64,000 nucleotides of DNA, from NCBI GenBank assembly GCA_965247115.1, contig CBDFGR010000002.1:1498669-1562668 (forward strand), given 5' to 3'. How positions within the stretch are numbered: the stretch's first letter is position 1; every line of letters begins with the position of its first letter. The translations under genes were made by a program, and so were the position numbers. The notes below the pieces were generated by a model that searched no databases, had not been told where the DNA came from, and saw only the letters and a program-made list of their open reading frames with translations. This DNA comes from Myxococcota bacterium (lineage in GTDB: Bacteria > Myxococcota_A > UBA9160 > SZUA-336). This document shows positions 2,329-63,911 of the stretch, piece by piece.

Positions 2329-3261
2329 ATGGATCTCAAGGTTCGGATCGGGGTAGGGACGGCGACGTTTCCCTTCTCGAGCGCCGGCGCATACTGGCGT
2401 TGGGTCGACCTGCTGGAGTCGAGCAACGTCGACTCGCTGTGGCAAACGGACCGGCTGACGGGGAGGCAGCCCTTTCTCGAGGCCATGAGCGCGATGGCGG
2501 CACTGGCAGGGGCGACGGACAGGCTCAAGTTCGGGATGAACGCGGTGGTCGTGAGCCTTCGCGATCCGCTACTGCTGGCCAAGCAGTGCGCGACCATCGA
2601 CTACCTGAGCGACGGGCGGCTCTTGCCCGTCTTCGGAGTCGGTGGGGACAACGCGCCGGAGTGGAAAGCCACGGGCAGGAGCCCGAGGCGTCGCGGGCGC
2701 CTGGCAGACGAAGCCCTGGAGATCATGCGCCGACTCTGGACCGAAGAGCGCGTCAGCTTCGAGGGTGAGCACTTCCACTACCACGAGGCCAGCATCGCGC
2801 CGCGCCCGGTCCAGAAACCGCTGCCACTGTGGATCGGCGGCAGCAGCAAGGCGGCGATCCGCCGCACCGCGCGACTCGGCACAGGCTGGCTCGCCGGCAT
2901 CCAGTCTCCAGCACAGGTCAAGCCCGTCGTCGCCGCGATCAAGGAGGCGGCCGCCGAAGCCGGGCGCAAGATCGACGCAGATCACTACGGCGCCGGCATC
3001 CCCTTCTTCTTCGGGAGCTGGGACGATCCGGAGGTCGAGCAGATCGCGCGGGCCCGGGGGAGACTTCCCGGTGGAGCCGATCCCCGGAGCTACTTCGCGA
3101 TCGGCGACGCCGCGGCCGTTCTCAACCGCATCCGAGAGTACCGAGACGCGGGCGCCTTCAAGTTCGTGCTGATTCCGATCGCTCGGGGAGACCGCGCGAT
3201 CAGCGAGCAGACACAGCGCCTGGTCGAGGAGGTTCTGCCCGTCGCGCACGCCTGGACCTGA
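2329..3261 (+). CDS. luciferase-like (LLM class) flavin/F420-dependent oxidoreductase
   Basis: ATG at 2329 inside ORF 2296..3261; MDLKVRIGVGTATFPF...LWQTDRL...GRLLPVFGVGG pattern of LLM family; about 310 aa. Confidence 0.7.
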   Translation: MDLKVRIGVGTATFPFSSAGAYWRWVDLLESSNVDSLWQTDRLTGRQPFLEAMSAMAALAGATDRLKFGMNAVVVSLRDPLLLAKQCATIDYLSDGRLLPVFGVGGDNAPEWKATGRSPRRRGRLADEALEIMRRLWTEERVSFEGEHFHYHEASIAPRPVQKPLPLWIGGSSKAAIRRTARLGTGWLAGIQSPAQVKPVVAAIKEAAAEAGRKIDADHYGAGIPFFFGSWDDPEVEQIARARGRLPGGADPRSYFAIGDAAAVLNRIREYRDAGAFKFVLIPIARGDRAISEQTQRLVEEVLPVAHAWT

Positions 3262-3310
3262 TCGCGCCGCTGCGCTCAGGCCGCTGGCACGACACGCCGA
3301 TCCGGTTCGC

Positions 3311-4927
3311 ATGGCCGTGTCCGAGCAAGCTCATCCCGCGCTAGTCGTCCGCGGCTCCTGTAGCGAGTGCGGCGGTCCGTTTCGCGCCGGCATCTGGGAC
3401 CACTCGTTCCACTGCGAATACTGCGGGTCTCTCCTGCTGTCGAAGCGCGAGCTGGGCGGCGAAGTGTACGTCGTCACCTCGGGGCGGAACCTCGCGGTGC
3501 TCGACGTGATCATCGCGAGGGAGTCGGATGAGCTGCGCTCCAGGCTGGCCGGGCGTTACAGGAGCGATGACGGCCTGAGCCTGGAGCTCCCCGCGTTCGT
3601 CGAGGCCAAGGTGACCACGCTCCAGGCGGAGCTGCGCGCCTCGCTCGAGCTCGTGGAGACGATCGACTTCTTCGCCCCGTACCTGGTTCGCGAGCAGACC
3701 GTCATGCAGGGCATCCTGGGCAGGCGACGGGGCCTGAAGGAGTCCTTCGTCCAGGCTTTTCTCGTGGAAGAGCTGGCGCGCCGGTACGACGCCTCGGACT
3801 TCAACCTGCGGGACCGCGGCCTCAAGATCCGGGGCCTGGAGCTGCAGCTCCTGCGCGACACTCACTTCGCCGAGAGCGAGCCCCGCTTCCTTGAGGCCAA
3901 CACGGCTGCGGAGTTCGACTCGCGTCTGGATCGCTCGGCGTTTCGCGTGCGAGCCGACACCCAGATCATCAGCCGCATTCACGACACGACGCGTGAGCGC
4001 CGCCTCAGCGTCTACAAGCACATGAGCTACGCCTGCGTGAAGCGCGACGCTGCTCCCGAGCGCTACCTGATCGACCGCCAGTTCGACGGCATCGCAGGCA
4101 GGCCCTCGGCGGAGGAGGCCGAGCGGTTTCGAGCCCTGCCGCTCCGGCCGATCTCCCAGGTCCTGGTGCCACCGGACATCCGGGCGATCGCGTCGCAGTG
4201 TCCGAACTGCGGCTGGGAGCTGGAGCTGCCAGCGCGAGAGAGCATCGTCTTCTGTCCTACCTGCTGGCTCGGCGTGTCGGTGACACCGGAGGGGCTTCAG
4301 GCGCACACCTACCGGGTCGAGCAGGCGCAGCCTCTGAGCCATGACCGGCGGCTGCTCTATTTCCCGTTCTGGGCGTTTCCTTTCCGGGTGCGCGCGGAGG
4401 GCGCGCTCTACACGCGACTCTGGGACTGGCTGGCCGCAGTCTCCCCCCAGCCGCTGGCGGAGCAGTTCCGCGAGACGGACCTGCCGGAGAGCACGTTCTT
4501 CCTGCCGGCGCGCGAGGTCTTCGGCAGTCCAGAGCTGGACGACGTGTTTGCCCAGCTCACCGGTTGGGTGAACTGGCGCCAGCCCGAGCTGCTTCGGGAT
4601 CGCCCGCCACCCGCCGAGCGGACGAGCGCGCTCGGCGTGGAGCTCTCGCCCGCCGAGGCCTGGAAGCTCGCTCGCTTTGCCCTGCTCGCACTGCACGACG
4701 ACCAGAGCACGCGCCGCCTGAACGGCGGCAACTTCGGCCGGTACCTGGCGGAGGCGGAGACTCTGCAGGGCTCCGCGTTCCTGGCCCTCGTCCCGCTCAT
4801 CAGCAGGGGCGAGGACTGGGACCCGGGTCTCAAACTACTGGGCTCCAGCGTGCGGGGGTTTCCCATGGCCCGGATCGAGGGCAGCGCCGCCAGGGCGCGA
4901 CTGACCAAGAGCTTCAACCTCGTGTGA
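3311..4927 (+). CDS. hypothetical protein with two CxxC...CxxC zinc-ribbon motifs
   Basis: ORF track 538 aa; CSECGG...HCEYCG near N-terminus and CPNCGW...CPTCW mid-protein; no family recognised by eye. First gene of a co-directional cluster with 5016..5504 and 5510..6646. Confidence 0.5.
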   Translation: MAVSEQAHPALVVRGSCSECGGPFRAGIWDHSFHCEYCGSLLLSKRELGGEVYVVTSGRNLAVLDVIIARESDELRSRLAGRYRSDDGLSLELPAFVEAKVTTLQAELRASLELVETIDFFAPYLVREQTVMQGILGRRRGLKESFVQAFLVEELARRYDASDFNLRDRGLKIRGLELQLLRDTHFAESEPRFLEANTAAEFDSRLDRSAFRVRADTQIISRIHDTTRERRLSVYKHMSYACVKRDAAPERYLIDRQFDGIAGRPSAEEAERFRALPLRPISQVLVPPDIRAIASQCPNCGWELELPARESIVFCPTCWLGVSVTPEGLQAHTYRVEQAQPLSHDRRLLYFPFWAFPFRVRAEGALYTRLWDWLAAVSPQPLAEQFRETDLPESTFFLPAREVFGSPELDDVFAQLTGWVNWRQPELLRDRPPPAERTSALGVELSPAEAWKLARFALLALHDDQSTRRLNGGNFGRYLAEAETLQGSAFLALVPLISRGEDWDPGLKLLGSSVRGFPMARIEGSAARARLTKSFNLV

Positions 4928-5509: not shown

Positions 5510-6646
5510 ATGTCGCAGTTCATCGAGGTCATCGAAAGCCTGGACACAACGGGCGACACCATCGTGTCGCGCTATCCCGCGGACGGTTCCGCCGAGATCA
5601 AGCTGGGGGCGCAGCTCGTCGTCCGTGAGAGCCAGGCGGCGGTTTTCTTCCGAGACGGACGAGCTCTGGATACGCTCGGGCCGGGGCGCCACACGCTGTC
5701 GACGCTGAACGTGCCCATCCTGACCAAGGTGCTGTCGCTGCCGACCGGGTTCACGAGCCCCTTCCGCGCGGAGGTCTACTTCCTGAACCTCAAGACCTTC
5801 ACGAATCAGAAGTGGGGAACCACAGAGCCCATCCTGTTCCGCGACGAGGAGCTGTCGATGGTTCGGCTGCGCTCGTTCGGCATGTTCTCGTTCCGGATCA
5901 CAAACGCCCAGGTGTTTCTCAACACGCTCTCCGGGACCGTCGGACGCCTTTACACCGACTGCATCGCGTCGTTCTTCCGCAGCTTCATCATCACGCAGGT
6001 CGCGGACTTCCTCGGCGAGCACCTGCGGAGCGTGCTCGACCTCGCGCAGTACTACAACGAGCTGAGCGCGGGCATCAAGGCGCACCTGATCTCGGACTTC
6101 GAGAAGTACGGCGTCACCGTCAGCGACTTCAAGATCCTGTCGATCTCGCCGCCCGACCACGTCCAGGAGATGATCGACAAGCGGGCCGGCATCGCGGCTG
6201 TTGGCAGCTTGGACAACTTCCTGCGCTATCAGGCCGGACACGCGCTGGGTATGGTCGGCGAGGCGGAGGGTGGAGAGGGCAGCTCCCTCTTGGGAGCCGG
6301 CGTCGGTCTCGGTGCCGGTGTGGGGATGGGCACCGGCGTTGCCGGCATGGTCTCGCAGGCGCTGTCCGGTGCAACGACTGGAGCTGCCGCGACAGGCTCG
6401 GTCTGCGCACGCTGTGCCGGCCAGATTCCGCCGGGCGCCGGCTTCTGTCCTGGTTGCGGAGGCCCGGTTGCGACCGCAACGAGCTGTACCAGCTGCCAGG
6501 CAAACGTCCCCGATGCGGCGAACTTCTGCCCCCAGTGCGGGGCCCAGCAAGGCGGCGCGCCATGTCCGAATTGCGAGGAGCAGATCGCGCTGGAGGCTCG
6601 TTTCTGCCCGAGCTGCGGGCACGGGCTCGAGGATCCCGGCGCCTAG
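5510..6646 (+). CDS. SPFH/band-7 (stomatin/flotillin-like) domain protein with three C-terminal zinc-ribbon motifs (COG4260-like)
   Basis: ATG at 5510 inside ORF 5171..6646; MSQFIEVIES...RESQAAVFFRDGRALDTLGPGRH... SPFH-like N-domain, Gly-rich linker, then CARCAG..CPGCGG, CTSCQ..CPQCG, CPNCEE..CPSCGH. Confidence 0.7.
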   Translation: MSQFIEVIESLDTTGDTIVSRYPADGSAEIKLGAQLVVRESQAAVFFRDGRALDTLGPGRHTLSTLNVPILTKVLSLPTGFTSPFRAEVYFLNLKTFTNQKWGTTEPILFRDEELSMVRLRSFGMFSFRITNAQVFLNTLSGTVGRLYTDCIASFFRSFIITQVADFLGEHLRSVLDLAQYYNELSAGIKAHLISDFEKYGVTVSDFKILSISPPDHVQEMIDKRAGIAAVGSLDNFLRYQAGHALGMVGEAEGGEGSSLLGAGVGLGAGVGMGTGVAGMVSQALSGATTGAAATGSVCARCAGQIPPGAGFCPGCGGPVATATSCTSCQANVPDAANFCPQCGAQQGGAPCPNCEEQIALEARFCPSCGHGLEDPGA

Positions 6647-6685
6647 CAGCAATCCGGGGCGGACCCGCTTAGACTTGGCTCCGAG

Positions 6686-8050
6686 ATGGGTCAGGGCTTA
6701 CTTACCGATCTGTACCAGATCACGATGGCCAACGCCTACTGGAACAGTGGCTTGGCCGAGCGCGAGGCGGTCTTCCAGCTCTACTTCCGCCGGAACCCGT
6801 TCGGCGGGGGCTATGCAGTGGCTGCGGGGCTGGCCGCGGCGATTGACTCACTGGAGTCCCTGTCTTTCGACGACGAGGATCTGGCCTACCTCGCGAAGCT
6901 CCAGGGAAACGACGGCCGCCCGCTCCTGGACCGAGGGTTCCTGGCGGGGCTCCGAAGCCTGCGCTTCGACTCCGACCTCGACGCGGTGCCTGAGGGGACC
7001 GTGGTGTTCGAGGGGGAGCCGTTGCTGCGCGTCCGCGGCGCCATCGTCCAGTGCCAGCTGGTCGAGACGGCTCTCCTGAACCTGCTGAACTTCCAGACCC
7101 TGGTGGCAACGAAGGCGGCCCGAGTCTGCCTCGCAGCGGCCGGAGATCCGGTGCTCGAGTTCGGGCTCCGGCGCGCGCAGGGACCGGATGGCGGGGTGTC
7201 GGCCAGTCGCGCCGCCTATCTCGGCGGCTGCGCCGCGACCTCGAACGTGCTGGCTGGCAAGCGCTTCGGCATCCCGGTCCGCGGCACGCACGCTCACAGC
7301 TGGGTCATGGCCTTCGACAGCGAGCAGGGGGCCTTCGAGGCGTGGGCCGAGGCTATGCCGAACAACTGCGTCTTCCTGGTGGACACCTACGACACGCTGG
7401 CGGGGGTGCGTCTGGCCGTGAAGGTGGGAACCCGTCTGCGCGAGCGCGGCCACGAGCTTGCCGGCGTCCGGCTCGATTCGGGGGATCTTGCCGATCTGAG
7501 TGTGGCGGCGCGCCAGCTGCTCGACGCGAGTGGCTTCCCGAAAGCGGAGATCGTGGCCAGCAACGATCTCGACGAGCACGCGATCGAAGCGCTCAAGCGA
7601 CGAGGCGCTGCCGTCAGCGTCTGGGGAGTCGGGACTCGGCTCGCCACCGCGCACGACGATCCGGCCCTTGGCGGGGTGTTCAAGCTGGCGGCAATGCGAG
7701 ATGCGGAGGGCCGCTGGACCTATCCCGTGAAACACTCGGAGGACCCGGAGAAGTCGACGCTGCCTGGCATCCACCAGACGCGCCGCTTTCTGCACGGCCG
7801 CAAGTTCCTGCGAGACCTGATTTTCGACGCGGAGCTCGGCGCGGACCAGACCGACGAGCCACACGAGGATCTCCTCAGACCAGTTCTGCGGTCCGGACGC
7901 CGGGTCGAAGAGCCCCCTACCCTGGACGAGTCGCGCGCGCACGCGCTCGATCAGCTCGCGCGGCTTCCCGCCGGGACGAAGCGGCTCGTGAACCCCGACC
8001 CCTATCCGGTGGAGGTCGACACCCGCCTCGCAGCCCGCACGCGCACGTGA
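6686..8050 (+). CDS. pncB: nicotinate phosphoribosyltransferase
   Basis: 454-aa ORF; [15 protein letters not shown]...[13 protein letters not shown]...VDTYDT motifs characteristic of PncB. Confidence 0.9.
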
Positions 8051-8175
8051 GAGCACTCATCCTCGTCGACCTGCAGAACGACTTCCTGCCCGGAGGCTCG
8101 CTCGCGGTGCCCGATGGAAACGGCGTGATCGACGTCGCCAACGCGGTCCAACCCCGCTTCCCCCTGGTCGTCTGA
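8047..8175 (+). pseudogene. pncA: nicotinamidase/isochorismatase-family (pncA-like) N-terminal remnant, 42 codons then stop
   Basis: GTG at 8047 overlapping pncB stop; [42 protein letters not shown] matches PncA N-terminus (about 190 aa expected); no continuation in other frames before the convergent gene at 8240. Confidence 0.5.
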
Positions 8176-8239
8176 GTCCGCCGAGGGACGTTCCCGACCT
8201 CCGAGGTCTGGCTGCTTGGGCTTGCGACCGCGGCGCAAC

Positions 8240-9034
8240 TTACGGAGAGATCAGCTTCGAGAGCGTGTGGAGCGCCCGCTCCATGCGCGGGCCGTACCAG
8301 CTCAGGAGCTCGCCCTCGATCACATGGATCCTACCGCTACGAGCTGCGGCGCAATCGAGCTGCAAGAGCTCGTTCCGATCGGACTCACCGAAGCAGTACG
8401 GCTCCGTGGGCAGAAGGATCACCTCCGGTGCGGACTCCTCCAGTCGGCGCTCGTCGATGCGCGGATAGCGCTTCTGGCCAGCAAAGCAGTTGACGCCACC
8501 GCAGACCCGCATGAGATCGTGCGCGAAGGTGTCCTCACCGACCGCCATGTATGGGTGCTTCCAGATGAGCGCCGCCACCCGGTCTCCTTCCTCGCGCGGG
8601 GAGGTCTTTGCCCGCGCGAGTTCGACACGCAGGGCGATCTGCTCCGCTACGGGTGAGGTTCCCGTCAATAGGCCAAGTGTGCGGATGTCTTCGATGGCCT
8701 CGGCGAGCGTGCGCGCGTACGTGACGAACACCCGTACACCCGCGGCTTCCAGGCGCTCAACGTCGCGCCGCCGGTTCTCCTCCTTGTTCGCGATGACCAG
8801 ATCGGGCTCCAGGCCCAGGATCGTGTCGAGCGAGGGATTCTTCGTCCCTCCGACGTGGGTCTTAGAGTGCACGCCCTCCGTCGGGTGAACACAGAACTCG
8901 GTAACTCCAACGATCTCGATGTCCAGACCGAGAGCGAAGAGCGTCTCGGTGATCGACGGGACGAGCGACACGACTCGCTGCGGAGGGCGCTCAAAGTCGT
9001 GGCTCCTGCCGAGCGCGTCCAGGATTCGCGGCAT
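8240..9034 (-). CDS. periplasmic substrate-binding protein, TroA/BtuF-like (ABC-type cobalamin or Fe3+-siderophore binding fold)
   Basis: 264-aa ORF; RVVSLVPSITETLFALGL...VGVTEFC...PDLVIA and ...EVILLPTEPY pattern of class III periplasmic binding proteins. No ABC permease or ATPase adjacent. Confidence 0.65.
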   Translation of the reverse strand: MPRILDALGRSHDFERPPQRVVSLVPSITETLFALGLDIEIVGVTEFCVHPTEGVHSKTHVGGTKNPSLDTILGLEPDLVIANKEENRRRDVERLEAAGVRVFVTYARTLAEAIEDIRTLGLLTGTSPVAEQIALRVELARAKTSPREEGDRVAALIWKHPYMAVGEDTFAHDLMRVCGGVNCFAGQKRYPRIDERRLEESAPEVILLPTEPYCFGESDRNELLQLDCAAARSGRIHVIEGELLSWYGPRMERALHTLSKLISP

Positions 9035-9035
9035 C

Positions 9036-10133
9036 TCAGCTCGGCGCGGCCCACGGATCGGGATCGAGGTCGAGGAAGCTCAGGGTCTCGGCCCCGAGCG
9101 CCGCGAGCGCCGCGTACAGGCGCTCGAGTCCCGGACGCTCCGTCGGGGCGTGTCCGGCATCGAGGAGACACATGCCTCGATCTTGGGCCGCTCGCGCAGC
9201 GTGGTGGCCCAGATCGCCCGTCACGACGGCGTCCGCGCCCGCCGCCGCGGCCAGGCTCAGCAGCTCAGAGCCCGAGCCGGGGATCACCGCGACCCGGTCG
9301 AGCACCCGGTCGGGGTCGCCGGCACGACGCAGCGTCTTCGTGTGTAGCTCCTCGGCCGCGCGCTGCGCCAGCCCCTGGAGCGTGGTCCCCGCGGCGGGTG
9401 TCCCGACTCGCCCGACCATTCCTGCGTTGCCATGGCGCTCGTAGACGTCGTAGGTAGGCTCCTCGTAGGGATGTGCAGCCACGAGCGCTCCCAGTGCCAG
9501 AGCTTCCTTGGATCGCGGCACCACGAACTCGAGCCGTACCTCGGGTTCCTCGTTCAGCCGTCCCTGCTTGCCCGTGCGGGGCTGGGTAGCAGCTCCGGCG
9601 AAGAAGGTCCCCACGCCCTCGGAACGGTAGGAGCAGCTCGAGTAGTTCCCGATCCGCCCCGCGCCCGCGGCGGAGACCGCCTGGAGCACCGACGGCGCGG
9701 CCTCCACGGGCAGAAAGGTGACGATCTTCAGGACATCTTGGCCGTACAGGGGGGCGAAGCCGGAGAGCTCGTCCAGGCCGAGTACCTCCGCCAGTGCGTC
9801 GGAGGTTCCTCCCTCGGCGACGTCGAAGTTCGTGTGGACCACGGCCAGCGCCGTGCCAAGGCGCGCCAGCCGCAACGTCCTGCCTTCCGGCGTCGCTCCA
9901 CTGAGCAGAGTGTTCGTGGACCGGAACAGCAACGGGTGGTAGCTGACGAGCAGGTCCACGGGACCTTGCTCCAGACGCGCGACGACCTCCTCGGTCACCT
10001 CGTGACACACTGCAACTCGTTCCACACGTGCAGAGGCATCTCCAAGCTGGAGGCCGACCGGATCCCAGGCCGCCGCCTTCTCAAACGGCGCACGCTGACC
10101 GAGCGAGGCGAGAAAGTCGGCTACCGTCCGCAC
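9036..10133 (-). CDS. Nif3-like dinuclear metal center protein (GTP cyclohydrolase 1 type 2 homolog)
   Basis: 365-aa ORF (GTG start); C-terminal AVIPGSGSELLSLAAAAGADAVVTGDLGHHAARAAQDRGMCLLDAGHAPTE is typical of Nif3/YqfO family. Confidence 0.75.
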   Translation of the reverse strand: MRTVADFLASLGQRAPFEKAAAWDPVGLQLGDASARVERVAVCHEVTEEVVARLEQGPVDLLVSYHPLLFRSTNTLLSGATPEGRTLRLARLGTALAVVHTNFDVAEGGTSDALAEVLGLDELSGFAPLYGQDVLKIVTFLPVEAAPSVLQAVSAAGAGRIGNYSSCSYRSEGVGTFFAGAATQPRTGKQGRLNEEPEVRLEFVVPRSKEALALGALVAAHPYEEPTYDVYERHGNAGMVGRVGTPAAGTTLQGLAQRAAEELHTKTLRRAGDPDRVLDRVAVIPGSGSELLSLAAAAGADAVVTGDLGHHAARAAQDRGMCLLDAGHAPTERPGLERLYAALAALGAETLSFLDLDPDPWAAPS

Positions 10134-10186: not shown

Positions 10187-10405
10187 ATGCACATCTCGAT
10201 TACGTACTGCGGGGCCTGAAACTACCTCCCGCAGGCCACCAGTCTGGCGGCCACGATCAAGGCAGAAGTCGGCGTCGAGACCGAGTTGATTCGCGGCGGC
10301 AGCGGCGTCTTCGACGTAGAGGTCGACGGCCGCACGATCTACTCCAAATCCGAGACCGGCCGCTTCCCCGAGCCGGACGAGATCCTCCCGGAGCTCAAGG
10401 GGTAG
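10187..10405 (+). CDS. selenoprotein W-like (Rdx/SelW/SelT family) small redox protein with in-frame UGA (Sec) at 10217-10219
   Basis: Manual translation from ATG 10187: MHISITYCGA-U-NYLPQATSLAATIKAEVGVETELIRGGSGVFDVEVDGRTIYSKSETGRFPEPDEILPELKG*; CxxU motif and FDVEVDG...SK...GRFP signature; not in ORF track because of the TGA. Confidence 0.75.
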
Positions 10406-10411
10406 TGGGCC

Positions 10412-10500
10412 TTTTGGGACCCGGCCGCGGGCGTCCGCGGCCACCCACCTCCGCTCAGGCCAGGGGCCTTCGCTGCGCGCGCCGCTCTCGCAGCGCTTGC
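10412..10500 (+). repeat. GC-rich ~90-bp multi-hairpin repeat, copy A (REP/RPE/MITE-like family)
   Basis: TTTTGGGACCCGGCCGCGGGCGTCCGCGGCCACCCACCTCCGCTCAGGCC-AGG-GGCCTTCGCTGCGCGCGCCGCTCTCGCAGCGCTTGC, immediately after the selenoprotein stop; matches copies B-H. Confidence 0.85.
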
Positions 10501-10933: not shown

Positions 10934-10953
10934 CAGTCGACCTCGGCACCGCA

Positions 10954-11043
10954 GCAAGCGCCGCGAACGCGGCGCGCGCAGCGAAGGCCCTCGGCCTGAG
11001 CGGAGGTGGGTGGCCGCGGACGCCCGCGGCCGGGTCCCACAAG
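10954..11043 (-). repeat. GC-rich ~90-bp repeat, copy B (inverted relative to A)
   Basis: GCAAGCGCCGCGAACGCGGCGCGCGCAGCGAAGGCCCTCGGCCTGAGCGGAGGTGGGTGGCCGCGGACGCCCGCGGCCGGGTCCCACAAG; ends next to the korB stop codon. Confidence 0.85.
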
Positions 11044-14464: not shown

Positions 14465-14653
14465 GAAGGCCTCCCCGAGCCCCTCCGGGCAGTGCGAAAG
14501 AATCCGGCCAGTGGCTCCTGGCGTCGACCTGGAGCGTGTCCGCACCCGCTGGGAGGGGTCGTTTGCGCCTCCGCAGTCTACCCCATCCGCCAGAGCGCAA
14601 CCCGAGATCGACCTAGACGCCGCGCCCGCTGGGTTGAGTACAGGGGCACTACT

Positions 14654-14743
14654 GCAAGCGCCGCGAAGACGGCGCGCGCAGCGAAGGCCGTAGGCCTGAG
14701 CGGAGGTGGGTGGCCGCGGCCGCCCGCGGCCGGGTCCCACAAG
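14654..14743 (-). repeat. GC-rich ~90-bp repeat, copy C
   Basis: GCAAGCGCCGCGAAGACGGCGCGCGCAGCGAAGGCCGTAGGCCTGAGCGGAGGTGGGTGGCCGCGGCCGCCCGCGGCCGGGTCCCACAAG, directly 3' of the alcohol dehydrogenase stop (14755). Confidence 0.85.
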
Positions 14744-46425: not shown

Positions 46426-46471
46426 CCCCTACCCGATCGGCAACCTGAACCCCTAGCCGATCGGCAACCTG
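46426..46471. promoter_or_regulatory. tandem 24-bp direct repeat, each unit carrying the palindrome CCGATCGG; candidate regulator-binding site
   Basis: CCCCTACCCGATCGGCAACCTG-aa-CCCCTAGCCGATCGGCAACCTG located 25-70 bp upstream of the epimerase start. Confidence 0.35.
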
Positions 46472-46553
46472 CAAGCGCCGCAATTGCGGCGCGCGCAGCG
46501 AAGGCCTGAGCGAAGGTGGGTGGCCCGCGGACGCCCGCGGGCCGGGTCCCACA
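46471..46553 (-). repeat. GC-rich repeat, copy D (short variant lacking the GGCC-N3-GGCC hairpin)
   Basis: GCAAGCGCCGCAATTGCGGCGCGCGCAGCGAAGGCCTGAGCGAAGGTGGGTGGCCCGCGGACGCCCGCGGGCCGGGTCCCACAG directly 3' of the sigma-54 regulator stop (46559). Confidence 0.8.
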
Positions 46554-47986: not shown

Positions 47987-48044
47987 GGCGGTCACAGCTC
48001 GAGTCCATCGCTCACTCTATCGGCGAGGAACTCCGCGGGCTTGT

Positions 48045-48240
48045 CTTGTGGGACCCGGCCCGCGGGCGGCCGCGGGCCACCCACCTTCGCTCAGGCCAAA
48101 GGCCTTCGCTGCGCGCGCCGCTTCCGCGGCGCTTGCCTTGTGGGACCCGGCCCGCGGGCGGCCGCGGGCCACCCACCTTCGCTCAGGCCAAAGGCCCTCG
48201 CTGCGCGCGCCGCTTCCGCGGCGCTGCGCGCGCCGCTGCA
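48045..48240 (+). repeat. GC-rich repeat, copies E1 and E2 (two tandem units, period 92 bp)
   Basis: CTTGTGGGACCCGGCCCGCGGGCGGCCGCGGGCCACCCACCTTCGCTCAGGCCAAAGGCC(T/C)TCGCTGCGCGCGCCGCTTCCGCGGCGCTTGC twice, in the divergent intergenic region between the sigma-54 regulator and ligA. Confidence 0.85.
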
Positions 48241-51770: not shown

Positions 51771-51783
51771 CCGAGCCAACCGG

Positions 51784-51876
51784 GCAAGCGCCGCGGAACG
51801 CGGCGCGCGCAGCGAAGGCCGAAGGCCTGAGCGAAGGTGGGTGGCCCGCGGACGCCCGCGGGTCGGGTCCCACAAG
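51784..51876 (-). repeat. GC-rich repeat, copy F
   Basis: GCAAGCGCCGCGGAACGCGGCGCGCGCAGCGAAGGCCGAAGGCCTGAGCGAAGGTGGGTGGCCCGCGGACGCCCGCGGGTCGGGTCCCACAAG between convergent yraN-like and rplS. Confidence 0.85.
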
Positions 51877-54466: not shown

Positions 54467-55055
54467 GCACGGCCGCCTCCAGGATCGCGTCGAAGCGGAT
54501 CGCCCCCTCGCGCAGGAGACGCAGGTTCCCGTCGGGATCGAGTGCAACGACGCTCGACGGGGCAAGATTCCCGGCCGTCCCCGCGACGACTGGCAGCTCC
54601 TGGCCGAAGAGCTCGTGAACCTCGCAAGCGGTCCCACATGGCGCTTCCCCGCTGCGATTGCAGCTCGTCGCGGCGATCGGCCGCTCGTACAGCCGCGCCA
54701 GGCGAGCGGCGACCGGGTGCGAGGAGCACCGAAAGCCGACACCGAACTCTGTAGCCACCTGCGCGAACGCGACGTCGACCTGTTGCAGCACCAGGGTGAG
54801 GGGACCGGGCCAGAAGCGCTTGGTCAAAAGAAGCGCTGGTTCGGGAAGGCTCGGGAGCCAGGCCTCCAGCGCGCTCGCGTCCCGGACCAGCACCGAGAGC
54901 CCGCGCTCGGGCGCCCGCCCCTTGAGGACTTGGAGTGCCTCGAGCGCGCTCGGCTCGAAGACGTCGACACCGAGGCCAAAGACGGTCTCGGTGGGATAGG
55001 CCACGACCCGCCCAGTCCCGAGGAGGCGAACGGCCTCGTCCGCAGAAACGATCAA
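54456..55055 (-). CDS. tsaC: L-threonylcarbamoyladenylate synthase (YrdC/TsaC family)
   Basis: TTG at 55055 overlapping purD stop (TTGA); ...GRVVAYPTETVFGLGVD...KGRAPERGLSVLV... YrdC motif. Confidence 0.75.
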   Translation of the reverse strand: MIVSADEAVRLLGTGRVVAYPTETVFGLGVDVFEPSALEALQVLKGRAPERGLSVLVRDASALEAWLPSLPEPALLLTKRFWPGPLTLVLQQVDVAFAQVATEFGVGFRCSSHPVAARLARLYERPIAATSCNRSGEAPCGTACEVHELFGQELPVVAGTAGNLAPSSVVALDPDGNLRLLREGAIRFDAILEAAVLSR

Positions 55056-56623
55056 CCCGCGTGGTCCCGGAGCGCCCGGAGCGCAATGTCGCTCCTGAGC
55101 TGGGCACCCTCGAACTGGATGCGACGCGCGGCGGCGTAGGCACGATCGCGGGCGGCGGCGATGCTGGCACCGCGGGCCGTGATGCCGAGCACGCGCCCAC
55201 CTGCCGTCTCCCAGCGACCGCCAGAGCGGCGGGTGGCGGCGTGAAACACGAGAACCTCCGGCTCGCTCTCGAGCTCCTCGAGCCCCCTGATCTCTCGCCC
55301 CACCGGGTAGCTGCGCGGATAGCCCTCGCTCGCCAGCACGACGCACACGGCCGGATCCCCGAAGACGGGGCCTGCGGGACCCGGCGCGCGAGCGGTCGCG
55401 CGCCACCCACCTCCGCTCGGCTTCGCCTCGCTGCGCGCGCCGCTATCCGCGGCGCTTGCACCTGCGGGACCCGGCGCGCGAGCGGTCGCGCGCCACCCAC
55501 CTCCGCTCGGCTTCGCCTCGCTGCGCGCGCCGCTATCCGCGGCGCTTGCACCTGCGGGACCCGGCGCGCGAGCGGTCGCGCGCCACCCACCTCCGCTCGG
55601 CTTCGCCTCGCTGCGCGCGCCGCTATCCGCGGCGCTTGCACCTGCGGGATCCGGCGCGCGAGCCGCTTGCAGAGGGAGCTGGCCCTGGGCCGCACCCACG
55701 AGCAGCGGGACGAGGTCGGACTCCATTCGGTACAGCAGAGGCTGCGTCTCCGGGTCGCCGAAGCGGACGTTAAACTCCACCACAACGGGCTCGGCCTCGA
55801 CGACCATCACGCCGACGTAGAGCACTCCCCGATAGGGCGTGCCCTCCGCACGCAGGCCGTCGAGCGTGGGCTGAACGATCTTCTCGATGATTCGCTGCTC
55901 CACGTCGGGGCTCACAACCGGGGCCGGGGAGTAGGCGCCCATGCCTCCTGTGTTCTCGCCGCGGTCACCGTCTAGCGCGCGTTTGTGATCCTGCGCAGCG
56001 GCCAGGCACACGCTGCGCTCCCCGTCGGAGATCGCGTAGTACGAGGCCTCCTCGCCAACGAGCCAGTCCTCGATCACGACCTCGGCACCGGAGTCGCCGA
56101 AGCGCCGCTCGCGCATGATCTCCGAGAGGGCAACGCTCGCCTCATCCGGACCCGCGCACATGTACACGCCCTTGCCAGCCGCGAGCCCGTCCGCCTTCAC
56201 GACAAGCGGCCCGCCGCGAGCGCGCACATACCGCTCCGCTTTGTCTGGGTCCGCGAAGCCCTGGTAGGCGGCAGTCGGGATGCCGTGGCGCTGCATGAAG
56301 GCCTTGGCGAAGCTCTTGCTGCCCTCAAGGCGAGCCGCGGCCGCGCCGGGCCCGAATACCGCGATCCCGGCAGCCTCGAGGTGATCCGCCAATCCCGCGA
56401 CCAGGGGAACCTCGGGACCGACGACCACCAGCTGAACGTCCTCGCGTTTCACGAGCTCCACGACGGAGTCGGGGCTGGCCAGCCGCGCCTCCGCACAGCG
56501 GCCGTGTCGCCCGATGCCGTCGCTGCCCGGGGCGCAGAGCACCTCGTCGACCAGCGGGCTGCGGCCGATCGCCCAGACCAGCGCGTGCTCACGACCTCCC
56601 GAGCCCAGAACCAGGACGCGCAT
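55052..56623 (-). CDS. purD: phosphoribosylamine--glycine ligase, carrying an about 95-aa in-frame insertion of repeat units
   Basis: MRVLVLGSGGREHAL...PLVVKADGLAAGKGV...FNVRFGDPETQ... then (ASAADSGARSEAKPSGGGWRATARAPGPAG)x3 before ...VVLASEGYP...; ATG at 56623 with GGAGGAG RBS. Confidence 0.9.
   Translation of the reverse strand: MRVLVLGSGGREHALVWAIGRSPLVDEVLCAPGSDGIGRHGRCAEARLASPDSVVELVKREDVQLVVVGPEVPLVAGLADHLEAAGIAVFGPGAAAARLEGSKSFAKAFMQRHGIPTAAYQGFADPDKAERYVRARGGPLVVKADGLAAGKGVYMCAGPDEASVALSEIMRERRFGDSGAEVVIEDWLVGEEASYYAISDGERSVCLAAAQDHKRALDGDRGENTGGMGAYSPAPVVSPDVEQRIIEKIVQPTLDGLRAEGTPYRGVLYVGVMVVEAEPVVVEFNVRFGDPETQPLLYRMESDLVPLLVGAAQGQLPLQAARAPDPAGASAADSGARSEAKPSGGGWRATARAPGPAGASAADSGARSEAKPSGGGWRATARAPGPAGASAADSGARSEAKPSGGGWRATARAPGPAGPVFGDPAVCVVLASEGYPRSYPVGREIRGLEELESEPEVLVFHAATRRSGGRWETAGGRVLGITARGASIAAARDRAYAAARRIQFEGAQLRSDIALRALRDHAG
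55371..55674 (+). repeat. GC-rich repeat, copies G1-G3 plus a partial fourth, period exactly 90 bp, inside purD coding sequence
   Basis: CCTGCGGGACCCGGCGCGCGAGCGGTCGCGCGCCACCCACCTCCGCTCGGCTTCGCCTCGCTGCGCGCGCCGCTATCCGCGGCGCTTGCA repeated at 55371, 55461, 55551; a diverged variant of the intergenic repeat. Confidence 0.85.
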
Positions 56624-56631
56624 CACTCCTC

Positions 56632-56751
56632 CTTGTGGGACCCGCGCGCGGGCGGCCCTCCCGCGGGTCAACGACCCGCGGGCCGCTGACGGCTTCCCAC
56701 CTTCGCTCAGGCCTACGGCCTTCGCTGCGCGCGCCGCTATGCGGCGCTTGC
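56632..56751 (+). repeat. GC-rich repeat, copy H (long variant with about 30-bp internal insertion)
   Basis: CTTGTGGGACCCGCGCGCGGGCGGCCCTCCCGCGGG...TTCCCACCTTCGCTCAGGCCTACGGCCTTCGCTGCGCGCGCCGCTATGCGGCGCTTGC; abuts the purD RBS and lies 3' of alr. Confidence 0.8.
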
Positions 56752-58982: not shown

Positions 58983-59602
58983 TCCCGCGCCTCTGCTACA
59001 TCACAGATGCCGAGCGAGGGACCGGCGGGCGCCCGCTGGCACAAGTGCTGAAGGACTCGGCCCGCGGCGGAGTGGAGCTCGTGGTGCTGAGAGAGCCCCA
59101 GCTAGAGGGCAGCGAATGGGAGGCTCTCTTGCAGCAGATCGCCCCGCTGCGCGAGGAGGGGCTCAGAGTGGTCGCCAGTCGCCGCTTGGACGTGGCTAGA
59201 GCCTGCGAGCTGGATGGCGTCCACCTGGCGGCCGACGCGATCAGCGTAGCCGAGGCTCGCGCCTGGCTGGGGCCGGGGGCCCTGATCGGATATTCGGCCC
59301 ACTCGGGCAGCGAGGCTCGCGACGCTGCCGCCGCCGGCGCAAGCTATGTGACACTTTCGCCGATCTACCAGACAGCGTCCAAACCCGGGACTGCCGGTCG
59401 GGGCTGCGCCTGGCTGGCGCAAGAGCTGCGGGAGGTGGAACTTCCCGTACTCGCACTCGGCGGCCTGACACCGGAACGCACACCGGAGGTGCTGGAGGCC
59501 GGAGCCTGGGGCGTCGCGGCAGTGTCCGCGATCGGCGCGGCTCCGGACGTCAGGGCGGCCGTCGGTGAATTTCAGAACGCACTCAAGGAGAACGCACCAT
59601 GA
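58979..59602 (+). CDS. thiE: thiamine-phosphate synthase
   Basis: 207 aa, GTG start; ...LCYITD...VLALGGL... TMP-synthase pattern; follows thiG. Confidence 0.85.
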
Positions 59603-61053
59603 CTCGCGCCTCACTCCTCGTACCGTTCGTCGCGAGCTTGGTCGGCTGCACAAGCCTGCCGAGCGCGCTCGCGAACGATCCGCTGGAGGCCCTGCAGACC
59701 CGGGTCATCGACGTCAACCACGCGGCGAGCCCCTCCGTCGTCCACATCGAGGCGGCGCTCAAGGTCAACAACCGGCGCAAGCTGGTGACAGGCTCCGGCT
59801 TCATTACCCATCCCGAGGGCATCGTGGTGACAAACGAGCACGTGGTCGAGCGGGCGCAGAAGGTCACCGTCCTGGTTCCTGGACGCGAGGGTCGCTATGC
59901 GGCGCAGGTCGTGGGAACGGACAAGCAGACGGACCTCGCGGTCCTGCGCATCGAGCCGCGCGAGGGGGAGCCGCCTTTCGCCGCAGCCGCACTCGGTGAC
60001 TCCGACCAGCTGCGCGTTGGGGAGTGGGTGATCGCGATCGGAAATCCCTACGGGCTGGAAGGGACGGTCTCGCTTGGGATCGTGTCGGCCAAGGGCCGGG
60101 ATCTGAAAGAAGGGAATCTGCTGAACGACTTCATCCAGACGGACGCCATGATCGATCACGGCTCGTCGGGCGGACCTTTGCTCGATCTGGACGGGCTGGT
60201 CGTAGGCGTGAATTCCCGCGGCCAGGGTCGCGGCATCGGCTTCACCATCCCCATCAACACGGCCAAGCAGGTCGCGGCCGATCTGCTGGGCGAGGGGCGC
60301 ATCGCGCGCGGCTATCTCGGCGTGTCCATTCAGCCGCTCGATCGCGAGCTCGCCCGCTACTGGGGCATCGAGCAGATCCACGGCGTGATCGTCGGCGCGG
60401 TGACGCACCAATCGCCTGCCCAGAATGCCGGGCTCCACGTGGGCGACATCATCACGCGCTTCGACGGCGAGGAGATCCGCGCGGAGAAGGACGAGGACAT
60501 GGGCCAGTTCCAGCGCCTGATCGCGGCCATGCAGGCGGGGGAGGAGGTCGCGATCGACGTATTGCGCGGTGGTGAGCACAAGACCGTTACCGCGACGCTG
60601 AGCGCCCAGCCCAAGGTCGTACCCGATGAGGAAGAGACCGAGCTCGGCTTCACCGCCCAGGAGGTGACCGAGATCCTCTATCGATCCCACCGTCTCGAGC
60701 AACGCTCCGGGGTGCTCTGCTCCTTCGTCGAGCGCGGCTCGGAGGCGGCTGAGGCGGGCATGGCACCTGGAGACCTGATCGTGGAGGTCGAGGGGGTCGA
60801 GATCCGCGACATCGAGGAGTTCCGGCAGGCGATGAGGGACCTGCGTCCTGGCACTCCGTTCCTGATCCGGGCGCTGCGTGGCGACAACATGCGGTACATG
60901 CTGGTCGTGCCGCGTTCCGGCGACTTCCGGGCCGCAAGCGCGAGACCCGAGCGGCAGCTTGCGCGCAAGATCGATGTGCGAGCCAGAGACGAGGGCGGGG
61001 AGGGAACAGATCTTGCGCAGTCATCCTCTGAAGGCAGGCGGATCACCAAATAG
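59599..61053 (+). CDS. HtrA/DegP family periplasmic serine protease with PDZ domains (paralog 1)
   Basis: 484 aa; signal/lipoprotein-like N-terminus; ...VVTNEHVV..., ...DLAVL..., ...GSSGGPL catalytic triad context; PDZ region. Confidence 0.9.
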   Translation: MTRASLLVPFVASLVGCTSLPSALANDPLEALQTRVIDVNHAASPSVVHIEAALKVNNRRKLVTGSGFITHPEGIVVTNEHVVERAQKVTVLVPGREGRYAAQVVGTDKQTDLAVLRIEPREGEPPFAAAALGDSDQLRVGEWVIAIGNPYGLEGTVSLGIVSAKGRDLKEGNLLNDFIQTDAMIDHGSSGGPLLDLDGLVVGVNSRGQGRGIGFTIPINTAKQVAADLLGEGRIARGYLGVSIQPLDRELARYWGIEQIHGVIVGAVTHQSPAQNAGLHVGDIITRFDGEEIRAEKDEDMGQFQRLIAAMQAGEEVAIDVLRGGEHKTVTATLSAQPKVVPDEEETELGFTAQEVTEILYRSHRLEQRSGVLCSFVERGSEAAEAGMAPGDLIVEVEGVEIRDIEEFRQAMRDLRPGTPFLIRALRGDNMRYMLVVPRSGDFRAASARPERQLARKIDVRARDEGGEGTDLAQSSSEGRRITK

Positions 61054-61087
61054 GGCGGCGGAGCCCGCCGTCAAAGGGACTGGCCCG

Positions 61088-62443
61088 ATGAAGAGCACCC
61101 TACTCGCTTGGGTCGTCCTTCCGATCCTCGCGATCGGGAGCACGGCTGTAGCCGACGTCGACACGCGCCGCACCCCCATTGTGAAGGCCGTAGAGCGCGT
61201 TGGCCCAGCCACAGTGAACATCACCTCGACCCAGGAGGTGCGCCAGCGGGCCAATCCCTTCTTCAGCTCGGACCCGTTCATCGAGAAGTTCTTCGGCACC
61301 TTCCTCGATCCCCGGCGCCGAACGGTCAGCAGCCTGGGTACCGGCCTCATCATCGGGCCAGAGGGCCAGGTGCTGACGAACGAGCACGTCCTGGCCGGCG
61401 CGACACAGATCCACGTCGTGCTCGCCGACGGGCGCGAGTTCGACGCCGAGCTCATCGGCGCGGACCCGGAGACGGACCTCGCGGTCGTGCAGATCAGCGC
61501 GGACGAGCCGCTGCCCTTCGTGGAGCTCGGGAGCTCGGAGGATCTGCTGATTGGCGAGACCGTGATCGCGATCGGGAACCCTTTCGGCCTGCACCACACG
61601 GTAACAACCGGCGTGCTCTCAGCGGAGAACCGCTCGATCCGCGCGGGCGACCGCGAGTACCACGGGTTCCTGCAGACCGACGCAAGTATCAACCCAGGGA
61701 ACTCGGGCGGACCGCTGCTCAACATCGACGGCGACGTGATCGCCATCAATACCGCCATCTTTCGCGAGGCGGAGGGAATCGGCTTTGCCATCCCGATAGA
61801 CAGGGCGAAGCGGGTCGTCGACGACCTCTTGACCCACGGCGAGGTCATTCCGGTCTGGCTGGGCCTTCGCCTGCAAGACCTCACCCAGAGCCTCCGCGAC
61901 GCGTTCACTGCCCGCGCGACGGGCGGCGTCCTGATTACGCACGTCTTCGCTGACTCCCCCGCGCAGCGCGCGAAGCTGCGCCGTGGCGACATCCTGCTCG
62001 AGCTGGATGGGACGAAGATCGGCACCGCGCGCAACTACTTCGAGGTCCTGGCCGGGCTGACCGATGGGGACCGCGCCGAGCTCGTGATCGACCGCGGGGG
62101 AGATCAACATCGGCAGGAGACGCACGCTGAGATCTTTCCGGAGAGCAGGGCCGACGAGCTGGCTCAGATCCTTCTCGGTGTGGAAGTTGCGGAGATAGAC
62201 AGTGAGCCGGGGGCCCGCCGCCGGGGCAACCGCGGCCTCGTAGTGCGGCGTGTCATCCCCCGTAGCTCAGCGGATTACAAGAGGATTCGACCAGGCGATG
62301 TGATCCTGAAGATCGACCAGGACCCGGTCGAGGATCGTGTTGCCTTTCGCAAGGCGATTACTAAGCTTCGCGGACGTGGACAGGTGCTCCTTCTCGTCCA
62401 GCGCGAGCGCTATGGCTACTACGTGACCCTGGATCTGTCCTAG
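61088..62443 (+). CDS. HtrA/DegP family serine protease (paralog 2)
   Basis: ATG at 61088; MKSTLLAWVVLPILAIG signal peptide; ...VLTNEHVL..., ...DLAVV..., ...GNSGGPL... Confidence 0.9.
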   Translation: MKSTLLAWVVLPILAIGSTAVADVDTRRTPIVKAVERVGPATVNITSTQEVRQRANPFFSSDPFIEKFFGTFLDPRRRTVSSLGTGLIIGPEGQVLTNEHVLAGATQIHVVLADGREFDAELIGADPETDLAVVQISADEPLPFVELGSSEDLLIGETVIAIGNPFGLHHTVTTGVLSAENRSIRAGDREYHGFLQTDASINPGNSGGPLLNIDGDVIAINTAIFREAEGIGFAIPIDRAKRVVDDLLTHGEVIPVWLGLRLQDLTQSLRDAFTARATGGVLITHVFADSPAQRAKLRRGDILLELDGTKIGTARNYFEVLAGLTDGDRAELVIDRGGDQHRQETHAEIFPESRADELAQILLGVEVAEIDSEPGARRRGNRGLVVRRVIPRSSADYKRIRPGDVILKIDQDPVEDRVAFRKAITKLRGRGQVLLLVQRERYGYYVTLDLS

Positions 62444-62462
62444 ACCGCAGGAGAGGAATTCG

Positions 62463-63911
62463 ATGAGACACGGCAAGGTTCTGGCGGCGATCGGCTTCGC
62501 GTTTGGGGGATTGCTGATCCTCACCCAACCGCTGGGCCTGGAGCTGCGGCTGAGCGAAAAGAGTGCCCACGCCCGCGTCGCGGGCGACGCCTTCTGGACG
62601 GACGGACAACCCGGCCCCACGCTCGGCAGGCCCGACTCGGTGGCGGATCTGGCCGAGGCCCTGTCTCCCGCGGTCGTGAACATCAAAACGGAGCGGAAGA
62701 GCAGCGCTCGCAGTCCCGACATCTTCGAGGAGTTCTTCGGGCGCCGCCGTCCTCGGGGAGGACCGCCTCCACAGTTCCGCACCGACGCGACGGGCTCGGG
62801 CTTCGTAATCTCCGAGGACGGCTACATCGTGACGAACAACCACGTGGTGGAGGGAGCCGACAAGATCGTTGTGGTGCTGGACAACGGAGAGGAGCTCGAT
62901 GCGGAGATCGTCGGTCGTGACCCGGAGACGGACCTGGCGTTGCTCAAGATAGACGCCGATCACGAGCTCAACGTCGCACCGCTAGGTGACTCCGACGCCA
63001 TCCGCGTCGGCGATTGGCTCATGGCGATCGGCAATCCCTTCGGACTCGATCACACGGTTACCCTCGGCATCCTGTCCGCGCGCGGCCGCAACATCAACGC
63101 AGGAAGGTACGACGACTTCCTGCAGACCGACGCGAGCATAAATCCTGGCAACTCGGGTGGACCGCTGTTCGACATGCGCGGGCGCGTGATCGGGATCAAC
63201 ACGGCAATCAACCAGAACGGTCAGGGCATCGGCTTTGCCATCCCGATCAACATGGCGAAGGATCTGCTCCCTCAGCTGCGCGCCGTGGGCGCGGTGACGC
63301 GAGGCTGGCTCGGTGTGCAGATTCAGCGCGTGAACCCGGCCCTGGCGAAGAGCTTCGGGCTCGATGAGCCGCGCGGCGCCCTCATCTCCATGGTCTTCGA
63401 GGACGGGCCGGCGGACAAGGCCCGGATCAAGCGCGGCGACGTGATCGTCGAGTTCGACGGCTCCGCGATCGACGAGTTCAACGACCTTCCGAGAATCGTG
63501 GCGAATACCGCTCCCGAGAGCGAGGTCTCGGTCAAGGTGCTGCGCGACGGTAAGGCCAAGACCCTCAAGGCAAGGCTCGGCAAGCTGGAGGAGGACCAGG
63601 TCCAGCTGGCATCGACCGAGCGCCACGATTCCGAGTGGGGCTTCGAGGTGGAGGCCCTGACCAGCGACATCGTGGAGAGGCTCGATCTGGACAAGGACCT
63701 GTCCGGCGTCCTGGTAACGGGCGTCGATCCCGAGTCAGGTGCCTACGATGAGGGGCTGCGCCAGGGCGACATCATTCTCGAGGTGAACCGCACCGAGGTC
63801 TCCCGGCCCGACCAGGTGACCCGGGCGCTCGAGAAGGAAGACGAGCACGCCGTGCTTCTCGTGCAGCGAGGCGAGGCGACGCTGTATCTCGCGATCGAGC
63901 GGGAGCGGTAG
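62463..63911 (+). CDS. HtrA/DegP family serine protease with two PDZ domains (paralog 3)
   Basis: 482 aa; ...IVTNNHVV..., ...DLALL..., ...GNSGGPL...; two PDZ-like C-terminal regions. Confidence 0.9.
   Translation: MRHGKVLAAIGFAFGGLLILTQPLGLELRLSEKSAHARVAGDAFWTDGQPGPTLGRPDSVADLAEALSPAVVNIKTERKSSARSPDIFEEFFGRRRPRGGPPPQFRTDATGSGFVISEDGYIVTNNHVVEGADKIVVVLDNGEELDAEIVGRDPETDLALLKIDADHELNVAPLGDSDAIRVGDWLMAIGNPFGLDHTVTLGILSARGRNINAGRYDDFLQTDASINPGNSGGPLFDMRGRVIGINTAINQNGQGIGFAIPINMAKDLLPQLRAVGAVTRGWLGVQIQRVNPALAKSFGLDEPRGALISMVFEDGPADKARIKRGDVIVEFDGSAIDEFNDLPRIVANTAPESEVSVKVLRDGKAKTLKARLGKLEEDQVQLASTERHDSEWGFEVEALTSDIVERLDLDKDLSGVLVTGVDPESGAYDEGLRQGDIILEVNRTEVSRPDQVTRALEKEDEHAVLLVQRGEATLYLAIERER

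Follow-up and report, generated by a model that had tools for sequence, protein, structure and literature searches.

Directly downstream of an intact nicotinate phosphoribosyltransferase gene, pncB, the stretch of DNA analysed here (64 kb, hereafter the window) contains a frame of 42 codons that begins like a nicotinamidase and then ends, raising the question of whether this frame is what remains of a lost pncA gene, a small protein in its own right or a product of faulty assembly. When related species and other contigs of the same species were considered, the region 8047-8239 emerged as very probably a unitary pseudogene of pncA, of the deletion type and produced by ordinary gene decay.

An intact pncB overlaps a truncated nicotinamidase frame

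The two features with which the question begins are as follows.

6686..8050, plus strand: pncB, nicotinate phosphoribosyltransferase, intact, 454 aa (NF006695; Pfam NAPRTase_N and NAPRTase_C)
8047..8175, plus strand: pncA relic 1, codons 1-42 and a TGA (assigned by PRK11609, tblastn and same-species alignment)

PncB scored 537.4 bits against the NCBIfam NAPRTase equivalog NF006695 (cut-off 469), as expected of a full-length member, and 524.8 bits against TIGR01513 (cut-off 297). The gene is undamaged in 7/7 same-species contigs, with dN/dS values of 0.07-0.16 within the species and of 0.13 relative to L001, a related Myxococcota MAG. The earlier assertion, made from the sequence alone, of an intact pncB next to a broken pncA is in this respect upheld. 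The GTG at 8047-8049, which the same sequence-only reading had described as opening a 42-codon frame over the pncB stop, indeed overlaps that stop as GTGA, a coupling signal still present in the window, and leads to a TGA at 8173-8175. The end coordinate given in that reading, 8239, marks the base adjoining the stop of a convergent binding-protein gene, the ORF itself spanning 8047-8175.

The assignment of this frame as the N-terminus of a nicotinamidase/isochorismatase was likewise supported. The NCBIfam nicotinamidase model PRK11609 matched the frame with an E-value of 6.9e-11, at a score (42.3 bits) far under its full-length cut-off of 174 bits, and Pfam PF00857 gave 18.6 bits, short of the cut-off of 27 that marks a full-length domain; in the Pfam/NCBIfam search, profile positions 2-36 were the sole part covered. 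In tblastn, all 42 residues aligned with intact L001 PncA at 95% amino acid identity (E=7e-21). Judged by these scores, the likeness to PncA is far beyond chance. The position of the frame, directly downstream of pncB and with an overlapping start, is moreover that of the orthologous pncA.

Related species carry a full-length pncA at the same site

Two genes on the opposite strand complete the neighborhood.

8240..9034, minus strand: TroA-like (Peripla_BP_2) binding-protein gene, intact (NF038402, 187 bits; PF01497)
9036..10133, minus strand: NIF3-family gene, syntenic context (TIGR00486, 149 bits)

When species-representative genomes were scanned with PncB, one close relative emerged, L001 (PncB identity 90%); a metagenome scan with the same query returned nothing nearer than ~70% identity. 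A protein search with L001 PncA then yielded more full-length relatives of 79-92% identity, namely, L161, L162, L163 and L164-L167. In each, an intact pncA occupies the syntenic site, encoding 203 aa in L001 (where the gene shows the GTGA overlap with pncB), 207 aa in L161, 203 aa in L162, 212 aa in L163 and 203 aa in L164-L167. The synteny comparison proposed in the sequence-only reading thus placed a full pncA at the exact site in five related species, as well as in the same-species contig L172.

Gene order around this site is shared. L161-L167 present an LLM oxidoreductase gene, a 538-aa gene, a 162-aa gene, an SPFH/zinc-ribbon gene, pncB and pncA, followed, where the contigs reach past pncA, by the minus-strand binding-protein gene and, in L161 and L162, by the NIF3 gene. 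In L001, pncA is followed by REP-like repeats and an IS, and then by the same binding-protein and NIF3 genes. The start overlap, either GTGA or ATGA, and the flanking genes are common to L001, L161-L164, L168 and L172, the last two being same-species contigs, and in many more distant loci, pncA adjoins or sits near pncB.

The sequence-only reading had viewed the binding-protein gene as filling the place of the missing part of pncA. This view was not sustained. In the relatives, pncA runs tail-to-tail with the binding-protein gene, the two sharing 4 nt in both L161 and L162 and being separated by 16 nt in L164; in all relatives showing both genes, their stops lie 0-45 nt apart or overlap by 4 nt, the exception being L001, in which REP copies and an IS separate the two. 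The binding-protein gene is similarly oriented beside pncA in L001, L161, L168 and L172 (264 aa), as well as in L162 and L164 (268-278 aa), and is adjoined by the NIF3 gene in relatives too. Given this tail-to-tail order, the binding-protein gene is the native, ancestral convergent neighbor of pncA rather than an insertion; nothing was inserted in the window, and ~460 nt were lost.

A second relic and a map of the missing sequence

The interval between relic 1 and the binding-protein gene could be divided into three parts.

8175..8201, plus strand: junction filler of 27 nt, replacing pncA nt 129-416 (288 nt)
8202..8230, plus strand: pncA relic 2 (the island), pncA nt 417-445, codons 139-149, in frame with relic 1
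8231..8239, plus strand: spacer remnant of 9 nt, CGGCGCAAC, from the ancestral spacer between pncA and the binding-protein gene

Relic 1 is identical at 125/126 nt to L172, the intact same-species allele, and this homology stops at 8174. The TGA at 8173-8175 is a product of the junction, in which the TG of the Cys43 codon, TGC, is followed by an A. Behind this stop, relic 2 reads EVWLLGLAT at 8203-8229, corresponding to residues 140-148 of L001 PncA (tblastn against the window), and is identical at 29/29 nt to L172, 28/29 to L168 and 27/29 to L001. In all relatives, pncA nt 417-445 align with the island, scoring 19-25 locally as compared to shuffle maxima of 10-13. The earlier statement that no other frame continues the 42-codon frame therefore stands for an open frame, but not for pncA sequence, a second in-frame relic lying at 8202-8230. 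An attempt to extend the island leftward through an in-frame 'RRG' was rejected, identity there being ~65% as compared to 97-100% in flanking homologous sequence.

Beyond residues 1-42 and 140-148, a tblastn search with L001 PncA over the 64-kb window found no match, nor was any other nicotinamidase found within the window. The genes of the 64-kb window include glyS, aspS, argG, argF, argB, hslUV, trmFO, dprA, ligA, trmD, rimM and rplS, together with purD, alr, thiG and HtrA paralogues, such that the window contains housekeeping genes only.

The spacer remnant CGGCGCAAC matches the L168 spacer at 9/9 positions, 17-25 nt after the L168 pncA stop. As this match is too short to be significant alone, the remnant was assigned to the old spacer because its position and order fit. 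Missing from the window are pncA from nt 446 to its end, together with the first part of the spacer, and a further 20 nt of spacer, such that the binding-protein stop at 8240 comes directly after CGGCGCAAC. In total, the net loss comes to 459 nt relative to L172 and 463 nt relative to L168. The interval between the start of pncA and the stop of the binding-protein gene is 193 nt in the window, as compared to 608-656 nt in relatives without REP/IS insertions (608-628 nt when contigs of other species alone are counted). The core of the sequence-only reading, loss of pncA by deletion next to a preserved pncB, is upheld.

The origin of the filler was also considered. Local alignment revealed no significant likeness to pncA or its flanks in L001, L161-L164, L168, L172 and L173, there is no second copy within the window, and no donor longer than 14 nt was found in 2.9 Mb of fetched loci. 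Three candidate sources were rejected, namely, the tail of pncA in L163 (a borderline score, 14 as compared to at most 13 in shuffles, within whole-window chance), a mosaic of pncA scraps (spliced alignment, p=0.05-0.6) and the REP elements, comparison with which was negative. The relic region contains no intrinsic terminator or promoter-like site, its predicted fold is no more stable than those of shuffled sequences (z=+0.68), and it matches nothing in Rfam.

Several pncA alleles coexist within the species

A search with the window's binding protein led to a 90% cluster, P0121, whose members are 95-100% identical to the query; one member, P0244, is identical to the window's binding protein at 264/264 positions. 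In the contigs of these members, referred to here as same-species, pncB differs from that of the window at no more than 35/1365 nt (at most 2.6%). Their pncA alleles are as follows.

L172 (12x, 1.18 Mb; ERZ25071132): pncA intact, 203 aa
L173 (11x; ERZ25069191): codon 47 TGG changed to TAG (W47*), together with S116R; flanks identical to L172
L168 (7x, 83 kb; ERZ25072670): full-length pncA, frameshifted by the loss of 1 nt near codon 86
L169 (3x; ERZ25072670): the window's left junction and filler, the island being shortened by 26 nt
L170 (10x, 447 kb; ERZ25067264): the window's left junction and filler, the island being shortened by 26 nt
L171 (4x; ERZ25072076): the window's left junction and filler, the island being shortened by 26 nt

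Across 16.8 kb, the window aligns collinearly with L168 at 95-97.5% identity, gain or loss of REP copies being the main other structural difference between them. Because no second frameshifting indel was seen in the L168 coding sequence aligned with the window (~16 kb), in which the only other gaps (3 nt and 9 nt) are both in frame, the L168 frameshift is probably real, although in a long-read contig of 7x a sequencing error could remain. The window and L169-L171, in which the shared junction is accompanied by a further loss, show a deletion allele that is real, circulating in nature and still shrinking. The window allele represents an intermediate stage of a continuing erosion.

The final five codons of the binding-protein gene contrast sharply between deletion alleles (SKLISP) and non-deletion alleles (RPLLSP), which hints at recombination at the locus, outside a simple stepwise model.

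A proposed course of the deletion

In the ancestor, pncB and pncA were translationally coupled by the GTGA overlap, with a pncA of 612 nt ending 0-45 nt from the stop of the convergent binding-protein gene. In the lineage of the window, ~460 nt were lost in at least three patches. One patch is pncA nt 129-416, replaced by the 27-nt filler at a junction that created the TGA; another runs from pncA nt 446 into the spacer, the beginning of which it includes; and the remaining one is 20 nt of spacer. Codons 1-42, the 29-nt in-frame island and the 9-nt spacer remnant are left. Separate knock-outs, one by the W47* nonsense change and another, probably, by the 1-nt frameshift, arose elsewhere in the same species, with one lineage keeping pncA intact.

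The deletions on the right-hand side probably stem from the instability of REP-like and IS elements that repeatedly insert at the junction of pncA and the binding-protein gene. In L001, this junction holds three copies of a ~100-nt GC-rich REP-like element and an IS. In L163, a REP lies directly after pncA, and in L161, 98.5% identical to it in pncB, there is none. The spacers of L168 and L172 hold a fragment of a REP end, CGCGGCCGGGTCCC. Imprecise loss of such an element is, then, a reasonable source for the right-hand deletions.

Whether the lesion was assembled by serial deletions or arose in one complex event, through error-prone end joining or the inexact removal of a mobile element, accompanied by synthesis of filler, is a closer matter, and the single event is placed a little short of even. 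Untemplated filler is typical of end joining. The window's lesions are common to the deletion clade as a block, with no intermediate found, the relics hardly differ from the intact allele, such that little time has passed, and the end of the filler, GACCTC, is the reverse complement of the start of the island, GAGGTC. Against this, the 6-nt inverted match may be due to chance, no donor for the filler was found in the searches described above, and the loss of 26 nt of the island in L169-L171 is clearly separate, meaning that serial deletion does occur here. With L168 and L172 as references, no clean microhomology was detected at the junctions.

Selection acting on pncA and pncB

Of the changes that separate L172 from L168, 14 in pncA are non-synonymous and 13 are synonymous (omega 0.33), as compared to 6 and 28, respectively, in pncB (omega 0.07). 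Between species, omega is 0.12-0.26 for pncA and 0.10-0.15 for pncB. On these values, pncB evidently evolves under purifying selection in all same-species contigs, and selection on pncA appears to be relaxed in the species. The possibility of relaxation particular to L168 pncA was rejected, given that its private changes (7 non-synonymous and 10 synonymous) are not clearly unlike those of other lineages.

A different view would hold that loss of pncA is adaptive, each knock-out having been favored, for example, because a nicotinamide-analogue toxin is then not activated, as with pyrazinamide in M. tuberculosis, or because nicotinamide is kept as a regulator. The deletion complex, W47* and the frameshift are independent of one another within a clade no more than 2.6% apart in pncB, two different alleles occur within a single assembly record, ERZ25072670 (L168 and L169), and in Mycobacterium tuberculosis, disabling variants across the whole of pncA are a signature of selection (PMC4212837). 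Yet dS between L172 and L168 is ~0.09, a depth at which, by a rough count, 612 nt under relaxed selection would gain a few indels or stops neutrally. Furthermore, the intact allele persists on Mb-scale contigs, and the sample comprises only seven contigs. By this rough estimate, relaxed selection suffices for three independent knock-outs in so shallow a clade, although positive selection could have acted, and adaptive loss is considered unlikely. Its more specific form, in which pncA was lost repeatedly and adaptively in one species under pressure from a natural nicotinamide-analogue toxin activated by nicotinamidase or for the benefit of sparing nicotinamide, is somewhat less likely still.

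Predicted consequences of pncA decay

Residues were mapped by aligning the intact protein to what we take to be the M. tuberculosis PncA sequence. The closest solved structure to the intact PncA is that of an Acinetobacter nicotinamidase (2WT9, E=2e-56), with M. tuberculosis PncA (3PL1) giving E=1.7e-28. Relying on the catalytic and metal-binding roles described for the M. tuberculosis enzyme (PMC6914729), the corresponding positions and their fate in the window are as follows.

M. tuberculosis D8, catalytic: here D8, kept in the relics
M. tuberculosis D49, metal ligand: here D46, lost
M. tuberculosis H51, metal ligand: here H48, lost
M. tuberculosis H57, metal ligand: here H52, lost
M. tuberculosis H71, metal ligand: here H81, lost
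M. tuberculosis K96, catalytic: here K106, lost
M. tuberculosis C138, catalytic: here C151, lost

D46, H48, H52 and H81 all fall inside the deleted pncA nt 129-416, relic 2 ends three codons short of C151, and both K106 and C151 were encoded by deleted sequence. As D8 alone survives, the relics cannot be an amidase. At most, a useless peptide of 42 aa would still be made by virtue of the coupling to pncB.

In the Preiss-Handler route, nicotinamidase supplies nicotinate to PncB, with NadD and NadE then acting (PMC9316036). The locus would no longer feed nicotinamide into this route, whereas salvage of nicotinate presumably persists. Judged at the pncA locus alone, loss of the nicotinamide arm of salvage, as put forward in the sequence-only reading, is plausible; outside the 64 kb searched, the genome may encode a second nicotinamidase, NadV or some other route. 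When the metabolism of this MAG is reconstructed, conversion of nicotinamide to nicotinate should not be credited to the locus at 8047-8239.

It is very improbable that the 42-codon ORF has instead been kept as a working small protein, one that, for instance, is translated through the coupled start and assists or regulates PncB. In favor of this, the GTGA overlap with pncB persists undamaged, gene callers predict the 42-aa ORF in L169-L171, and comparison of the relics with L001 gives 11 synonymous and 1 non-synonymous differences (omega 0.03). Since relic 1 remains all but identical to the intact allele, however, this low value mostly reflects divergence while the gene was still working. Within the deletion clade, where numbers are small, relic 1 shows D12N, at an invariant residue, in L170 and L171, V27S in L169 and one synonymous change, which, together with the 26-nt loss, speaks against a conserved micropeptide. 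Nor is the short ORF conserved independently, as the earlier reading had named as a possible objection: the five related species and L172 carry the full gene, of 203-212 aa in the former, and no short ORF, the latter being confined to the deletion clade and variable there. Its stop codon arose by accident at the deletion junction, and the exact 42-aa sequence has no gene-product record in the collection searched. The region 8047-8239 should, therefore, be annotated as a pncA pseudogene, without a 42-aa protein call.

Least probable of all is an assembly artefact, in which the contig was mis-joined or collapsed across a full-length pncA, for while the junction of pncA and the binding-protein gene is variable, with REP and IS polymorphism at which metagenome assemblies can break, the left junction and the 27-nt filler are identical in L169, L170 and L171, drawn from three other, independent assembly records, these contigs differ from the window at 13-17 pncB sites and therefore are not copies of one assembly, and no flanking repeats that might cause a collapse were found at the junctions, such that the earlier concern over an assembly error at this point falls away.

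Comparison with known systems

The preferred reading, of a pncA pseudogene undergoing ordinary decay, can be set beside three known situations. In M. tuberculosis, many independent disabling pncA variants, point changes among them, are scattered along the gene and segregate in one species (PMC4212837). The alleles considered here are similar in that the same enzyme family is affected, the gene is dispensable and multiple disabling variants exist within a species. They differ in that the selective agent in M. tuberculosis is a known prodrug, pyrazinamide, whereas for the Myxococcota species there is no known agent and relaxed selection is enough, and in that the window allele is a multi-patch deletion in an uncultured environmental Myxococcota and not a point mutation. 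Were the loss of pncA adaptive after all, it would represent an environmental counterpart of pyrazinamide resistance. The series of pncA alleles could serve as a simple test of neutral against selected loss of nicotinamidase in soil or sediment bacteria.

Relative to its own relatives, which hold the classical pncB-pncA salvage pair, the window keeps only the working pncB half.

The third comparison is with pseudogene decay by deletional bias, reportedly treated by Mira, Ochman and Moran in 2001 and by Kuo and Ochman. According to this model, once selection on a gene is relaxed, disabling changes come first, and one deletion after another then wears the gene away until nothing is left. The alleles fit such a course, running from the intact gene of L172 to the point-disabled genes of L173 and L168, to the window and on to L169-L171, which are 26 nt shorter. 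The same-species contigs can thus be read as a natural gene-death series at a REP/IS-prone junction and could be used to illustrate how a gene decays by deletion. As a single locus, the case is routine, and what it adds is modest, namely, that several stages and independent knock-outs coexist in one uncultured species. Beyond the presence of several stages in one species and the 27-nt filler, nothing essential distinguishes this locus from the deletional-bias model.

The 3′ end of the binding-protein gene

Comparison of the final five codons of the binding-protein gene (8240-8257 in the window) with the corresponding codons in the same-species contigs L168, L172 and L173 revealed that some half of the bases differ between the two allele classes. 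The encoded protein ends in ...LSKLISP* in the window, in the same-species contigs L169-L171 and in other species, and in ...LRPLLSP* in L168, L172 and L173. Since this split is perfectly linked to pncA deletion status and does not simply fit the pncB tree, it points to recombination at the junction or to a footprint left there by repair.

The TroA-like binding-protein gene is without ABC-transporter partners within the window. In all related loci showing both genes, namely, L001, L161 and L162 from related species and the same-species contigs L168-L173, it is paired with a NIF3-family gene, and the two together span 8240-10133 in the window. Such constant pairing suggests that the two form a conserved two-gene unit.

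Mobile and repetitive elements

In L001, pncA is separated from the binding-protein gene by an IS element encoding a DDE transposase of 359 aa (7066-8370), which is bounded by inverted REP copies with 41-nt arms that are 100% complementary. A transposase unlike that of L001 (DUF772/DDE_Tnp_1; 6025-6795) is found directly upstream of pncB in L172, at a site occupied by the SPFH gene in the other contigs.

Examination of the window, L001 and L163, the latter also a locus of a related species, revealed an interspersed GC-rich repeat family, REP- or MITE-like, with a unit of roughly 92-100 nt and the core ...GCGCGCAGCGAAGGCC..GGCCTGAGCGGAGGTGGGTGGCCGCGG.CGCCCGCGGCCGGGTCCCACAAG. The family is common to the species of the window and to related species, with copies being intergenic, in either orientation and, in some places, in tandem. 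The presence or absence of copies differs between the window and L168.

REP-like repeat copies
Window: 10403-10494, 10945-11043, 14645-14743, 46469-46553, 48039-48222, 51776-51874, 56655-56746
L001: 7004-7044 and 8375-8570
L163: about 4745-4804

A REP-like element has also multiplied inside purD, an essential gene, with the frame maintained.

55052-56671, minus strand: purD, with a tandem REP-like array within

The array (55371-55663) comprises 3.3 near-identical tandem copies (99% matches) of a 90-nt unit that is itself a member of this REP-like family. The copies sit between the GARS_A and GARS_C domains and leave the reading frame unbroken, such that the predicted PurD, at 539 aa, carries an insert of about 100 aa derived from them.

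Other genes

In L161, a 3x long-read contig, pncB is called as two ORFs of 339 and 118 aa (2666-4031), probably reflecting a sequencing frameshift. In the window, three HtrA/DegP-type paralogues lie in tandem, their mutual similarity being recognisable at the DNA level.

59599-63911: tandem serine proteases of the HtrA/DegP type (three paralogues), with Trypsin_2 plus PDZ domains
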